64,000 nt of DNA from a virus. The notes under the pieces are model-generated. The model did not search any database, was not told the DNA's origin, and worked only from the letters and a program-made list of their open reading frames with translations. The stretch spans positions 76,004 to 140,003 of the IMG/VR virus record IMGVR_UViG_3300035698_008372; one strand, written 5' to 3'. This document shows positions 2,524-10,990 of this stretch, piece by piece. A program made the position numbers and the translations under genes. Numbering within the stretch: the first letter of the stretch is position 1; each line of letters begins with the position of its first letter.

Positions 2524-3579
2524 GTGAAAACATATTGTGAAAAAAAGAACGGAAAAATTAAATTTGGAGATACTAATCATATTAGTTACGTGGGTCACTA
2601 TACAAACAATAACAATAAAACATATTATTTGCGTAGCAAGATTGAATTCGTGGTGGCTAGATGATTAGATATAAAAAATCTTAAATTTTTATATGAATGC
2701 AAAATATATATAATAAATTCAAAAAATTATAAACCCGATTTTTTCCACACTGTAAATGATAAAATCAGAACTATTATAGAAGTAAAACCAGATAAACAAA
2801 CGGCTCTGGAATATTATTCTAAATATAACGAGTATTTTAAGAATATAGGAATTCGGTATGTAGTTTTATGAGAAAAACACATACATCAATTAATACGTAA
2901 AAATAATTTACAAGATGAGGTACTAAATTGAATAGACTATAGCATCACGAATTATAAAGTTCCCGATATGAGAGGGAAAAATAATCCTAGATATGGAATG
3001 AAAACATCAGCAACTACTAAAAAGAAGATAGGTGATAAGACCAGAGAAAGATGTAAGGATAATGAGTATATTGATAAATTGAGTACCTCTATTTCTAAGT
3101 TCTATAATACGGACATGGGACTAAAACGAAGAAATGAAATTTCAGAGTTAAGAAAACGTGAAAACGTAGAATTCTGGAAACGGAAAAATCATGATGACCC
3201 ACTTACTACTGCTATATGTAAAATATGTGGTGATTTATTTAGATATAGAGGTATTAGTGAAAGTGGTCGTGTAACTTGTAGAAAAAATGGATGTACTACA
3301 AAATATAATAATAGTATTGGAATTCCTCGAAAACCATTATCTAAAAAATCAAGTATTAGCTCATATAAAACAAGACTGTTAAACGGTGGTAATAAAATGA
3401 AATTAACTGAAAACTATAAAGATTGAAACGAGAAAATTAACATGTTAAAGAAAACGTATAATATTCCAATGACGTTTGGTATGAATGAAAATACCATTGT
3501 CAAATATTTTGGAAATATAAACACCTATATAAAGGAGATAAAAAAATATGGGAAAACTAATAAGAACGATTTTACATAA
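2524..3579 (+). CDS. Free-standing homing endonuclease (PD-(D/E)XK, NUMOD3-like and Zn-ribbon parts) with 4 in-frame TGA
   Basis: Frame is open from GTG 2524 to TAA 3579 if TGA (2662, 2869, 2929, 3424) is sense; RSKIEFVVAR*LD, YKPDFF, IIEVK, GKNNPRYG, CKIC. Confidence 0.8.
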
Positions 3580-3660: not shown

Positions 3661-3833
3661 TAACTACTAAGTCTCGGGGCAGTATAAATTTCTCCTGATT
3701 GACTTGGAAGGTGAGTATACACCGACAGGGCGCAAGGGTAAAGCCAGCGTGAGAGACTGAGCGGAGAAACTTCAAAATGAAGATGCGACAGTCCACCTTA
3801 TGAATCGAAACTTCTGATACGATTTGTAAACAG
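3661..3833 (+). ncRNA. Group I self-splicing intron (173 nt, no ORF) in nrdJ
   Basis: 5' exon ends in U (TGCCT) and intron ends in G (AACAG); removal gives TGC CTC GAA CAA = C-L-E-Q-S-L-E-S-Y-E-L-C-C-L; P7-like GAGACTG and GATGCGACAGTCC elements. Confidence 0.85.
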
Positions 3834-4764
3834 CGAACAAAGTTTAGAATCCTATGAATTGTGTTGTCTAGTTGAAACATTTCCAGACAATCATACGAGC
3901 AAAGAAGATTATTTGCGAACATTGAAATATGCTTATCTTTATGCAAAGACAGTGACACTTGGAAAAACTCATTGGCCAGACACAAATAGGGTTATGCTGA
4001 GAAATCGTAGAATTGGTACATCGGTATCTGGTATTGCCCAATTCATTACCAATCGAGGTCTGGGTGTACTCAGGGATTGGTTGGAAAGTGGGTACGATGA
4101 GATTAAGAAATGGGATGAGATGTATTCAGATTGGTTATGTATTCAGCCCAGTATAAAAATTACAAGTGTGAAACCTAGTGGGACAGTATCACTACTGGCC
4201 GGATCAACTCCAGGATTACATTATCCAGAGAGTAGGTTCTACATCAGGCGTGTACGACTGGCAAAAAGTAGTAAACTGATTACACCACTTGAAAACGCTG
4301 GATACAAAATAGAACCGGCTTATGGTTCTGAAGAAAGCACAGTTGTGGTGGAAATTCCCATTGATGAGGGTGATGGAATTAGGACAAAGAAGGACTTAAC
4401 GATGTGGGAACAATTGGCCCTTGCGGCGTTTATGCAACGGCATTGGGCTGACAATGCTGTTAGTGCCACGATCACGTTTGATCCGGAAACCGAATCGGAT
4501 CAACTCCCATTCGCTTTGAACTATTTTCAGTATCAATTAAAAGGCATTTCATTTCTACCTAGAGTGGAAAAGGGGGCCTATAGACAAATGCCGTATGAGG
4601 AAATCACTGAAAGTGAATATGATAATATGAAAACTAATCTAAAATATTTGAGTTTAATTCACATTGAAGGGGAAATGGCAAACCCAGAAAAATATTGTGG
4701 GAATGATACGTGTGAAATTGATGCCGAGTGGGCACAAGTTGAAGATGAACAGGATGAAAAATAA
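3834..4764 (+). CDS. nrdJ: NrdJ fragment 3, exon 2 (C-terminal catalytic part)
   Basis: EQSLESYELCCLVE, NRRIG, TSVKPSGTVS, YRQMPYEEI, C-terminal CGNDTC. Confidence 0.92.
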
Positions 4765-7416: not shown

Positions 7417-9177
7417 ATTTATAAGTCAATTTATTTCGAAGCGGAAAAACAGAAGATTCATTTGTGGGATGATGACCGCGGCTATTTCACAATACCATAT
7501 AGACGTTATGGGTATATAAAAGATAGGGGCGGCACATATACTTCATTATATGGGGACAGGCTTAAGAAAATCCACAAGTGGGGCAAAGATTCCACTGGAT
7601 TATTTGAGAGTGATGTACACCCTGAAACAAGAACATTAATTGATCTGTACACCAATGACGATGAACCATCAAAAGGTAACAAAACGATTATTATTGATAT
7701 TGAAGTCGAGGTCACAGATGGATTCCCAACTGCTACTTTGGCCGAGAATAAGGTTACGGCTATATCAATTTACGATTTTACGGATAAGAAATATTATGGT
7801 TTGGTATTGGAAAATGGCAAGGGTATTATCAAGCCATCCACAACTCCAGAGCTTGACATTGAAGTGTTTGATATGGAAGTTGATTTGTTGAATAGATTCA
7901 TGCAGATATACCTACGCATAAAACCAACTATTATTACTGGTTGGAATGTGGATAGATTTGATGTAACATACCTATACAATAGAATGGCCGATCAGCTGGA
8001 TGAAGATGTAGCCAATTGCTTGTCTCCAATCGGTGTGGTACATTGGAGTGATTTCAGGGGTAGCTACAGAATCGCTGGGGTTGCAACAATGGATTACTTA
8101 CAGTTGTATAAGAAATTTACATTTACGCAACAGGCTTCATACAGATTGGATGCGATTGCTGATTTCGAATTGGGTGAACGCAAAATTGAATATGATGGTA
8201 CACTAAACGAATTATATGAAAATGACATTGAAAAATTTGTCCAATACAACATCCATGATGTTCGACTAATTGAGATGTTGGACAAGAAATTGAATTTTAT
8301 AGAAATCGCTCGTGGTATTTGTCACTTGGGGCATGTTCCGTATGAAGATATTTACTATGACAGTAGATACCTAGAGGCTGCTATTCTTGTTTATCTGAAA
8401 AAATTGAACATCATCGCTCCGAATAAGCCCGAGCGTGAGGGTTGGAAGGATGAAATTGGCTTTGAGGGTGCTCACGTTCAAAAGCCCAAGAAGGGTCGTC
8501 ATAATTGGGTATATGATTTGGATTTAACATCAATGTATCCAAGCATCATTATGTCGTTGAACATTTCTCCAGAGACAAAAATAGGTAAAATAGATGGGTG
8601 GGATTCCAATAAATTTGTGAAAAAAACCCCAAAAACCTATACTGTCAAATATGGTACAACCGCACTCCAATCCATGGATCAGGATGAACTACAGGTATTT
8701 TTTGATACCAATCATGTGTCGGTATCGGCCAATGGGATATTGTACAAAACTGATAGGGATGGCCTAATCGCGTCACTCCTGAAAAAGTGGTTCGACGAAC
8801 GTGTTGAATTCAGAAAATTGGCTAAGAAGTTTGCCGACGCGGGTGATAACGAGAAATATGATTATTTCAATAGACGACAACATATCCAGAAGATTCTCCT
8901 TAACTCACTTTTTGGGGCACTCGGTTTGCAGGGTTGGAGATTCCATGACGTAGACAACGCCCTTGCAGTTACATCGACGGGGGTAGAATTAATTCGATTT
9001 TCCAAAACCATTGCAAACCATTATTACAATACTGAGCTTGGTAAAGAAATTGAACTTGAAATGGAAGATGGGTCTATCAGAAAATTATATGAAAATTGGC
9101 CAATCCATGTAAAAAGGGGTGGTAAAAAAGTTCAAATTTTAGCCAAAAATCTCAAAATAAATGATGATATTCTCTAA
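7417..9177 (+). CDS. polB: Family B DNA polymerase, N-terminal fragment (exonuclease + motifs A/B); probable ATT start
   Basis: DIEV, TGWNVDRFD, YNIHDV, DLTSMYPSII, KILLNSLFG; frame is open from ATT 7417 behind AGGGGA. Confidence 0.92.
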   Translation: MYKSIYFEAEKQKIHLWDDDRGYFTIPYRRYGYIKDRGGTYTSLYGDRLKKIHKWGKDSTGLFESDVHPETRTLIDLYTNDDEPSKGNKTIIIDIEVEVTDGFPTATLAENKVTAISIYDFTDKKYYGLVLENGKGIIKPSTTPELDIEVFDMEVDLLNRFMQIYLRIKPTIITGWNVDRFDVTYLYNRMADQLDEDVANCLSPIGVVHWSDFRGSYRIAGVATMDYLQLYKKFTFTQQASYRLDAIADFELGERKIEYDGTLNELYENDIEKFVQYNIHDVRLIEMLDKKLNFIEIARGICHLGHVPYEDIYYDSRYLEAAILVYLKKLNIIAPNKPEREGWKDEIGFEGAHVQKPKKGRHNWVYDLDLTSMYPSIIMSLNISPETKIGKIDGWDSNKFVKKTPKTYTVKYGTTALQSMDQDELQVFFDTNHVSVSANGILYKTDRDGLIASLLKKWFDERVEFRKLAKKFADAGDNEKYDYFNRRQHIQKILLNSLFGALGLQGWRFHDVDNALAVTSTGVELIRFSKTIANHYYNTELGKEIELEMEDGSIRKLYENWPIHVKRGGKKVQILAKNLKINDDIL

Positions 9178-9239
9178 GTTTATACTATTTATATACAGAC
9201 ACAATGTATCAATGTATAAAATATAAATTGGAGAGTAAG

Positions 9240-10079
9240 ATGAAAAAGGGGTCAGCGAGAACATTACAATATTGATTGGATAAAGGGTATAAAGGGGAAG
9301 AAGCAGAAAAAATGCGTATGAGCAGAATTCCAGGTACTATAGAATATTTTACTATATTTAAGGGGCTCCCATTGAATGAGGCCGAAATTGCGAAAGAAAA
9401 TTATAACAAAAGGTCCGTTCCGACATTGGAAAATATGATACGCAAGTATGGGGAAACTGAAGGTGAAATTAGGTGGGGTGCATATCGTGAAAAACAGGCA
9501 AAATCCAATACATTTGAATATAAGCGTGATAAGTATGGTTGGACATTGGAACAATTCGATGCTTATAACAAATCAAGGGGATTGTCTGGTAAAGACAATG
9601 GCAATTATGGGTCGAGCTATTATGAAGCTTGGGTTAAAAAGTATGGAAAAATAAAGGCCGATGAAATGAATAATGCTTTAGGTGAATTGAAAGCCAAAGG
9701 GGGGAAATCTCAAAAAGGTGTACCCAAATCATTTGTGGCTAGAAAAAATATGAGTATAGCTGCAAAGAAAAGGATAATGGATCAGGGTACTTACATTTCA
9801 TATAATCCAAATTCAATTCCGATAATTGAAAAATATGGAAAAGAAAATGGATATAAATTTCAACATGCTGAAAATGGCGGCGAATATTTGGTTAGGGAAG
9901 TTTACTATTGGGTAGATGGGTATGATCATGAAAATAATGTGGTGGTTGAATATGATGAAAAATACCATGAAATGCAAACGGAAAAAGATAAAATTAGGCA
10001 ACAACATATAATGGATGTGTTGGGGTGCAAATTTATAAGAATTAAAGAATCTGGAGAAATTAAGATTTATGAAAATTAA
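9240..10079 (+). CDS. Free-standing endonuclease (Vsr/DUF559-like C-terminus) between PolB fragments; 1 in-frame TGA
   Basis: GGAG RBS, then MKKGSARTLQY*LDKGY (TGA 9273); KYG repeats; YWVDGYD...VVEYDEKYH...D.IRQ..I...LGCKFIRI. Confidence 0.8.
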
Positions 10080-10990
10080 AAATATAAGGGAATCAAAAGG
10101 TGTCGATGTGGATCATGTTATCTACATCGACACGTAGTGCGGATTCACTATTTATTTCGTCAACCGCGATGGTGAGCAAACGATATGGAAACAAGAAATT
10201 CAGTGATGTCATGCTGTCACAGTACATCTTGACAATAGCTGGTGACACCCAAAAATTCATAAATAACTCGTATGACTATTTTGCCAAGAAATTCTGTAAT
10301 CTTCCCGGTGCACACCGGTTTGAGATTAAACAGGAATTGATTGCAAAGTCAGCTGTATTTGTCAATGCTAAGAAAAATTATGGGTTGCGTGTTATCAATG
10401 ACAATGGTGTGAAAGTGGATAAAAATGTGTACAAAGGCTTGGCCGTAGTTCGCAGTGATTTCCCACAATCATACAGAAAATTGTTAGGTGAGGTGCTAGG
10501 TGATGTTCTAGCGGATGTTCCAAAAGATAAGATCGACGATCGTATTATTGAATACAAAAACAACATGAGATACTTGAATGTCGAAGATATCGCCAAACCA
10601 ACTGGGGTTAAGAATATCAAAAAATATTTGGTTCCACCTGGAGCGGGTGGGGGATTTTCTACTTGGAAGTCTCGTTGTCCTATCCATGTCAAATCATCTA
10701 TCATATACAATGATTTGATTAAGCATTTTGACAAACAAAAGAAGTACGCATTGATAGGGGCCGGCGACAAGGTCAAATGGGTGTACTTAAAGAAAAATAA
10801 TTTAGGATTAGAAAGTGTGGCTTATACAGGTCACGAAGACCCAAAGGAAATTATGGATTTCATATATAATTTTGTGGATAGGGATAAGATGTACGATAGT
10901 ATATTTTTGAACAAAATCACATCAATATATTCTGCCATGGACTGGTCGTTGCCCATAGATAAAAAGTTCTCGATGGACAGATTTTTTTAA
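10069..10990 (+). CDS. polB: Family B DNA polymerase, C-terminal fragment, interrupted by 7 nt (10135-10141) within motif C
   Basis: MKIKNIRESKGVDVDHVIYIDT-[TAGTGCG]-DSLFIS; KKNYG, KGLAVVRSD, PIHVK; C-terminal SMDRFF. Confidence 0.88.

Follow-up and report, generated by a model that had tools for sequence, protein, structure and literature searches.

In Aeromonas phage Aes123, the gene of the family-B DNA polymerase (PolB), gp43, is fractured by a functional split intein (PolB1), and a VSR endonuclease gene lies between its two halves (JN377899.1; PMC11923092). We analyzed a similar arrangement, to which Aes123 is the closest described system, in a 64-kb stretch of DNA from an uncultured T4-like phage (hereafter the window: positions 76,004 to 140,003 of the IMG/VR record IMGVR_UViG_3300035698_008372), where a mobile endonuclease gene interrupts the polymerase gene and PolB is therefore made as two chains. 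Chain A ends with a tail of 44 residues and chain B begins with a head of 11 residues. Judging from sequence profiles and from a predicted fold, both descend from a split intein of the kind known from "fractured genes", and the splicing chemistry of this intein has been lost.

The Aes123 gene and the window share a T4-like PolB, the end of an N-intein, a free-standing Vsr-type endonuclease and the start of a C-intein. Their break positions are 11 codons apart, the Aes123 intein being the downstream one, inserted between YIDTD and S. However, the intein of Aes123 is complete (Ser1, block B, HN and then Ser) and its chains are ligated, whereas the window retains, after the ELG motif of the host protein, the distal N-lobe and one C strand only, without catalytic residues. 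The polarity of charges on the interacting strands is also reversed between the two loci. The window's arrangement may have arisen from one like that of Aes123 through deletion and recombination. Block F of the C-inteins aligns at its start with the host strand that precedes motif C, and this similarity could have guided the recombination.

Fractured genes were described by Dassa et al. (2009) as split inteins accompanied by a free-standing GIY-YIG or Vsr-like homing-endonuclease gene (PMC2677866). They resemble the PolB of the window in that the halves flank a Vsr-like endonuclease, with a hairpin upstream and complementary charges. They differ from it in that they splice, and a PolB broken at the window's site is not among the hosts given there (PMC2677866). 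Split inteins of the fractured-gene type are found in the window itself, in nrdJ. The same work mentions an SbcD-like gene that is intein-less, is split by a Vsr-like endonuclease, and has 25 and 9 unexplained extra residues at the break. This gene is like the window's in its extra termini, for which an intein origin is not stated in the passages on it (PMC2677866).

Tails have been studied at the nrdA-a/mobE/nrdA-b locus of Aeromonas phage Aeh1, where they are derived from the element, oppositely charged and essential for activity (Crona et al. 2011, PMC3045599). The same authors speculated, without sequence support, that these tails may be degenerate relics of a split intein. As in the window, a replication-related essential gene is cut by a free-standing endonuclease gene, and the tails are unique, being absent from contiguous homologues. 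Unlike in the window, the endonuclease is of the HNH family, and the tails are short, lack detectable similarity and are needed for a dimer of heterodimers. Intein ancestry is demonstrable in the window, where a docking role is what we infer.

Another essential gene split by a free-standing endonuclease gene is found in T4, in the cassette of gene 39, mobA and gene 60, which has a translational bypass of 50 nt (bioRxiv 10.1101/2022.08.31.505936). As in the window, the downstream chain has a short, stop-first, non-coding insert near its start, and both products have tail-like extensions (noted in PMC3045599). The host gene, the endonuclease family and the length of the insert (50 vs 7 nt) differ. 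The T4 tails are not known to have an intein ancestry. Finally, the split gp43 (43A/43B) of the Aeromonas phages 44RR and 25 is a T4-like PolB that consists of two chains, which form an active complex (work of Petrov, Karam and co-workers, as cited in PMC2677866 and PMC3045599). Phage 25 also has a free-standing endonuclease gene between the PolB cistrons. Unlike the window's, it encodes a GIY-YIG endonuclease and comes with an untranslated spacer and a group I intron, and intein-like termini are not known to have been reported for this locus.

A full-text search of the available literature for degenerate, inactive or non-splicing intein relics retrieved nothing that describes such a module, a natural split intein devoid of splicing. 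The locus combines a fractured gene with putative assembly tails derived from the element, both kinds being already known.

A polymerase gene broken before motif C

The source record is 140 kb long, is estimated to be 71% complete, and has one family-B polymerase locus only. This locus has the layout of a fractured gene, with both halves of a conserved enzyme gene on one strand and a free-standing homing-endonuclease gene between them (Table 1). The ends of the two chains and the endonuclease between them had been pointed out in an earlier model-made prediction from the window's letters and open reading frames (ORFs), the original prediction, and they are confirmed: an endonuclease-like ORF lies at 9276..10079, and the ATG that opens the head of chain B is at 10069. 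The first four codons of the head overlap the endonuclease stop. Chain A matches the Pfam families DNA_pol_B_exo1 (E = 1.1e-21) and DNA_pol_B (E = 4.2e-24), covers positions 58-569 of the 856 positions of phrog_262, and can be aligned to contiguous relatives as far as the junction. The remainder of chain B covers positions 580-844 of the same family and is 84% identical to the PolBs of loci L002 and L003. A nucleotide search of the locus against cultured phages matched essentially nothing. Rfam matched zero families between 8500 and 10800 at E up to 1, group I and group II introns included, and the possibility of such an intron, or of another RNA element, in the spacer was dropped on these grounds.

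The junction was mapped by scanning viral contigs with the C-terminal part of PolB, which gave 43 related loci, 36 of them covering the junction. All 36 are contiguous at this point: the ELG motif runs straight into the motif C strand. They include the closest relatives, L002 and L003 (PolB 84% identical), which are without any trace of insertion. In the window, the host sequence of chain A ends just past ELG, at about 9048, and restarts in chain B at 10102, where the residues that follow the head match those that follow ELG in L002 and L003. Compared with the 36 contiguous PolBs, the window's PolB has about 42 additional residues in the tail and 11 in the head. Neither the 36 contiguous loci nor the cassette-bearing loci described below showed an intact split intein at exactly this site, the nearest known one being that of Aes123. 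With reference to the sequence and structure of RB69 gp43, the break would lie in a surface loop, with the palm helix downstream of motif B on one side and the beta-strand that bears the catalytic Asp residues on the other. With this placement the active site would be composite, motif A being on chain A and motif C on chain B.

Table 1. Features of the PolB locus, in window coordinates
Feature	Position	Strand	Description
PolB chain A ORF	7462..9177	+	Ends with 44-residue tail (9043-9174) and stop (9175-9177)
PolB chain A core	7462..9042	+	Exonuclease domain, motifs A and B, palm helix, up to ELG motif
Chain A tail and stop codon	9043..9177	+	Remnant, dead for splicing, of the distal (N2) half of an N-intein
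Predicted RNA hairpin	9170..9235	+	Minimum free energy -14.2 kcal/mol, z -2.3
Free-standing Vsr-like homing-endonuclease gene	9240..10079	+	Weak Pfam DUF559 match, homologues, identity to Aes123
Chain B head	10069..10101	+	11 residues, basic, starts MKIK; relic of the first strand of a C-intein
Host PolB resumes	10102..10137	+	Strand into motif C, ends YIDT, then TAG; matches L002/L003 and other contiguous PolBs
Seven extra bases, TAGTGCG	10135..10141	+	Frame broken inside motif C (between YIDT and DS); read directly from the sequence
Remainder of chain B	10142..10990	+	Second half of motif C, KKxY motif, thumb

Split-intein origin of the tail and head

Genuine split inteins flank endonucleases related to the window's in other genes (L097, L116, L123 and L125). 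Their N-inteins have Cys1 and TxxH, their C-inteins end with HN followed by Thr, and their endonucleases are 44-45% identical to that of the window over the C-terminal half. By eye, the last ~43 residues of these N-inteins resemble the PolB tails, and all four C-inteins begin with M-K-I-K-x-I-K, the same as the heads. We compared with hhalign a profile of 10 tails and a profile of six genuine N-inteins, two of which came from the window's nrdJ. The two profiles aligned with a probability of 94.6% and an E-value of 7.3e-8 over 43 columns, at positions 54-96 of the 101 positions of the N-intein. The score of this alignment was 40.2, compared with 9.9 +/- 2.5 for 200 column shuffles (maximum 21.1) and 12 for the reversed alignment.

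Structure prediction points to the same part of the intein. AlphaFold2, given the alignment of tails alone and thus no intein sequences, predicted a lobe of four to five strands (predicted local distance difference test, pLDDT, of 92.1). An exhaustive structure search with this model against 48,161 PDB representatives (VIA-align; 36 matches listed, 37 chains at Z >= 2) gave inteins or a hedgehog Hint domain as the first 19 of the matches listed, with Z from 6.2 to 3.1 and root-mean-square deviations of 1.2-2.1 over 39-44 residues. The matches all fall on the same region of the fold (PI-PfuI 81-125, Npu DnaE 54-95, NrdJ-1 62-105 and gp41-1 45-85). Small domains often give Z values in this range, and the weight of the result lies in the uniformity of the list and in its agreement with the sequence comparison. 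The best Foldseek matches were likewise inteins, at E-values that are non-significant for a query of 44 residues. A search of PDB with the profile of the 10 tails ranked the Pab PolII intein third, with a full-length alignment and an E-value of 0.45, which we take as a lead only. The match to Hint covers the distal N-lobe only, a whole Hint fold being impossible from 44 + 11 residues. The head aligns to C-inteins for ~10 residues only and then continues as host sequence. In a contiguous mini-intein of the same kind (L133), four residues link the end of the N-part to the start of the C-part; hence the two retained pieces are adjacent along the chain in the contiguous form.

Searches with single sequences would not have led to this origin. 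Pfam matched nothing in the tail at E up to 10, whether or not the 10 residues before it were included. Phmmer gave chance matches only against PDB, and 0 matches when run exhaustively against 1.84 billion representatives, in which split fragments are probably clustered under contiguous PolBs. A search by words with the tail region retrieved the window's own protein and one 80% relative only. Such tails therefore look like orphans. Profile homology, predicted fold and the shared start of the heads uphold the original reading of the termini, in which chain A ends with the distal half of an N-intein while chain B begins with a C-intein's first strand, and we regard an intein origin followed by loss of splicing as very probable.

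The alignments indicate that canonical protein splicing is impossible for the window's PolB, because the N-terminal lobe with Cys1, the Thr and His of block B, block F and the terminal HN have all been lost. The N-terminal lobe, which takes up ~55 residues in L097, L116, L123 and L125 and includes the position-1 nucleophile, is absent from all 10 aligned tails, and the tail of the window begins directly after the host ELG. The Thr and His of block B fall on a Tyr and a Trp of the window's tail in the hhalign alignment, and on other non-catalytic residues in other lineages. Blocks F and G and the terminal HN are absent from the window and from every aligned lineage. The original prediction had noted that a block A Cys or Ser, TxxH, block F and HN were lacking, and the hhalign and C-intein alignments agree with it on each of these. 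Where a fractured gene has functional split-intein halves, this locus has non-catalytic relics only.

Recurrence of the cassette in diverged viruses

We surveyed the distribution of the cassette by looking up the contigs of endonuclease homologues, by scanning viral contigs with the alignment of these homologues, and by a further scan with the alignment of the tails. The architecture of tail, endonuclease and head was found in PolBs that are only 40-57% identical to the window's (L045, L046, L047/48, L049/50, L051, L052/53, L054-57, L058, L059 and L060). Tail and head are present at the PolB site in at least 11 diverged viral lineages, a recurrence that is not due to chance, and are missing from the 36 contiguous loci. 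In every lineage the tail has 42-45 residues and an acidic-hydrophobic end motif directly before the stop (the sequences having diverged to 22-45% identity), and the head opens with M-K/R-I-K.

Five loci retrieved by the scan with the tail alignment (L127-L131) have kept tail and head around a different ORF, of 157 codons (at about 2620-3093), whose similarity to the window's endonuclease is non-significant (blastp E = 0.42). In these loci the endonuclease may have been swapped out and the half-intein ends retained. One other locus is atypical: in L059 (1401-3433), chain A and its tail end near 1790, ~700 bases before the endonuclease, and the gap contains an unrelated open frame of 89 residues and a second, short endonuclease-like fragment (2162-2293). 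This cassette looks rearranged or doubly invaded. Related endonucleases also split genes of the terminase large subunit (L094, L113, L117, L119 and L120), and these match the single atypical terminase case of Dassa et al. 2009 (PMC2677866).

The distribution of the cassette is patchy. It is carried by scattered PolB lineages, and the nearest relatives of the window, L002 and L003, are without it. The half-intein module is part of a mobile, selfish homing-endonuclease cassette and is not domesticated by the host, contrary to the original prediction, which had called the Hint sub-domain domesticated. It is better seen as the element's own device to limit damage.

A frame break in motif C and the control region of the endonuclease

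The frame that starts at 10069 is open for only 22 codons and ends with YIDT-TAG, after which chain B continues in another frame. This break had been missed: the original prediction of a two-chain polymerase stands in that two PolB chains are encoded, and falls short in that the second chain is itself interrupted by 7 nt. Breaks of this kind accompany the cassette in most lineages (L045, L047, L049, L051, L052, L054, L058, L060 and L127). Two loci have the cassette without the break (L059 and L063), and 0 of the 36 contiguous PolBs have a break. The insert starts with a stop codon, lies inside motif C, and is seen only in cassette-bearing PolBs. In the window it occupies the very site at which the functional PolB1 split intein is inserted in Aes123.

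The nrdJ gene of the window has a discontinuity of its own. Its second C-intein (ORF from about 3548) ends with HN, followed by Cys-Leu-Asn-Tyr-stop (3668-3670), and the continuation of the C-extein (Cys-Leu-Val-Glu...) starts at 3865, in another frame and ~209 bases after the splice junction, with "CL" duplicated. Rfam gave zero matches here at E up to 1. These ~209 bases may be a further insert located close to the target of an endonuclease, comparable to the 7-nt insert of PolB.

The endonuclease ORF of 267 codons extends to the ATG at 9240 if the in-frame TGA at 9273-9275 is read through; TTG 9276 and ATG 9312 are alternative starts. The position of the TGA is occupied by Trp (TGG) in the homologues of L047 and L049, and L046 shares the TGA. 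Two of the endonuclease homologues were flagged as translatable only if TGA is read as Trp. In the rest of the window TGA serves as a normal stop codon (4 of 45 long ORFs), and the TGA of the endonuclease points to leaky read-through, to a start further downstream or to incipient decay rather than to a change of the code. The match of the protein to Pfam DUF559 is weak (E = 0.0013, below the curated cut-off). Homologues are numerous (521 detectable, many with NUMOD3), and over its N-terminal region the protein shares 48% identity with the enzyme annotated as a VSR endonuclease in Aes123. The predicted hairpin lies between the stop of chain A and the start of the endonuclease. Its 3' arm covers the Shine-Dalgarno sequence of the endonuclease (GGAGAG), it contains late-promoter-like TATAAAT words, and the last codons of the tail fall inside it. 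Regulatory hairpins upstream of the endonucleases of fractured genes are a similar feature (PMC2677866).

Selection on the tail and docking of the two chains

The tail evolves under constraint. The ratio of non-synonymous to synonymous substitution rates (dN/dS, Nei-Gojobori) in seven pairs of tails was 0.27, 0.43, 0.49, 0.38, 0.18, 0.18 and 0.34, with dS from 0.12 to 1.8, and the pooling of three independent pairs gave proportions of synonymous (pS) and non-synonymous (pN) differences of roughly 0.56 vs 0.25. Charge is conserved as well: in all lineages the first strand of the tail has a net charge of -1 to -4 and the head one of +3 to +5, the same values as in genuine inteins of the family. 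The halves of split inteins associate via opposite local charges on two long antiparallel strands, and in NrdJ-1, IMPDH-1 and NrdA-2 the N part is negative and the C part positive (Dassa et al., PMC2677866).

We propose the following mechanism. PolB would have been split just before the motif C strand by a mobile cassette with three parts: ~43 codons from the end of an N-intein, a Vsr-like homing-endonuclease gene, and ~10 codons from the start of a C-intein. The retained pair would correspond to the elements that make the halves of genuine split inteins associate, which are an acidic lobe with a beta-hairpin in the N part and a basic first strand in the C part. Once translated, the strand of the head would zip onto the folded lobe of the tail, by electrostatic capture and then by beta-sheet pairing, and this docking would keep chain B's motif C strand within the chain A palm sheet and let the composite active site form. 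The element would in this way offset the damage it causes to the gene by non-covalent docking instead of splicing. For the head to belong to chain B, ribosomes would have to read past the 7-nt break that lies 22 codons further on. The support for a role of the tail is indirect: dN/dS below 1, the kept pairing of charges, and retention around a different ORF. On balance we favor, with modest confidence, a clasp of tail and head that docks the two chains non-covalently.

Tail and head were also modeled by AlphaFold as a tethered single chain, with ~300 filler residues between them; for this, 9043-10134 of the window and the corresponding segments of L049, L051 and L052 were translated in the frame that tail and head share, each stop being read as Gly. 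The mean pLDDT of 30, with the head below 50, is too low for this model to speak for or against the clasp. Several points weigh against the clasp. The relic in the head amounts to only ~10 residues. Since the endonuclease gene overlaps its first four codons, part of its conservation may be borrowed. A stop codon and a frame break separate it from most of chain B. If chain B were to start at GTG 10100 or at ATG 10106, the head would be left out and the idea of a clasp would fail. The failure of single-sequence searches to retrieve any intein with the tail belongs here too. Among the known systems, the tails of Aeh1 NrdA are unneeded for the heterodimer and needed only for higher-order assembly (PMC3045599), which means that tails can matter without acting as a clasp. 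The split gp43 of Aeromonas phage 44RR is reported to assemble, intein-like ends being undescribed for it in the literature as cited in PMC2677866.

The tail and head might thus be true intein relics without any role in docking, the two PolB chains assembling via the interfaces of their own palm domain, as split enzymes can do unaided and as the heterodimers of Aeh1 NrdA do without tails (PMC3045599). The relics would then persist because they cap or solubilize the cut ends, stabilize chain A, or couple the translation of the endonuclease to that of chain B, or because the spread of the cassette, which is mobile and patchy, outpaces their decay. Some of the constraint must be at the level of nucleic acids, since the head codons overlap the endonuclease stop and the end of the tail lies in the hairpin that covers a ribosome-binding site. 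But dN/dS is well below 1 over the whole tail at dS above 1, which argues for selection on the protein and not on DNA or RNA signals only. The tail is predicted, with very high confidence, to be a compact lobe, the opposite charges of tail strand and head are kept in all lineages, and the relics are kept where the endonuclease has been replaced. We consider relics without docking unlikely, though by far the most serious competitor of the clasp.

A decaying PolB pseudogene, with a tail that is a meaningless read-through of inserted DNA or a decayed duplicate of motif C, is much less probable still. It might be thought of because a stop codon and a frame break lie inside a catalytic motif, because the endonuclease gene has an in-frame TGA, and because BLAST extended weak tail alignments onto the motif C region of contiguous PolBs. 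The duplicate of motif C was dropped, as only about 5 of 45 residues are identical to motif C, against the strong profile homology of the tail to N-inteins (E = 7e-8). Against decay in general, this is the sole PolB of the record, the two chains are in other respects intact, with 84% identity to contiguous relatives, and the architecture persists in many diverged lineages with a tail under purifying selection. Chains that are still joined covalently, by non-canonical splicing of the half-inteins or by RNA or DNA splicing to a contiguous PolB, are the least probable of all, for although some inteins survive the loss of a single conserved residue (the PolB16 intein tolerates that of the block B His; PMC10189870) and a working split intein occurs with a VSR endonuclease in the same gene of Aes123, the window has lost whole structural blocks, the N-terminal lobe, position-1 nucleophile, blocks F and G and terminal Asn are missing in all of the at least 11 lineages, and the spacer is without Rfam matches.

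Implications for selfish endonuclease cassettes and their hosts

Non-covalent docking by a dead half-intein would, if true, be a third route by which selfish phage endonuclease cassettes neutralize their own effects, besides RNA splicing and protein splicing. In its full form, this idea is that the dead half-intein acts as a portable heterodimerization module and is accompanied by an insert, decoded by the ribosome, that protects the endonuclease target; that the module arose when a functional split intein, of the kind seen in Aes123 gp43, lost its chemistry and kept its binding; that it is common across uncultured T4-like and other phages; and that it explains the "tails" on genes split by endonucleases. 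We put it forward tentatively, at somewhat less than an even chance. The locus joins three known phenomena, fractured genes, assembly mediated by tails, and a stop-first insert near an endonuclease target.

Our results provide evidence, from sequence and predicted structure, for the idea only speculated for Aeh1 NrdA, that odd tails are relics of split inteins. They suggest that the association function of split inteins can outlive their splicing chemistry. For genome annotation, they imply that such PolB genes probably encode functional two-chain enzymes and are not pseudogenes. The tails and heads would constitute a family of small natural heterodimerization modules (about 44 + 10 residues), which are candidate tags for protein engineering.

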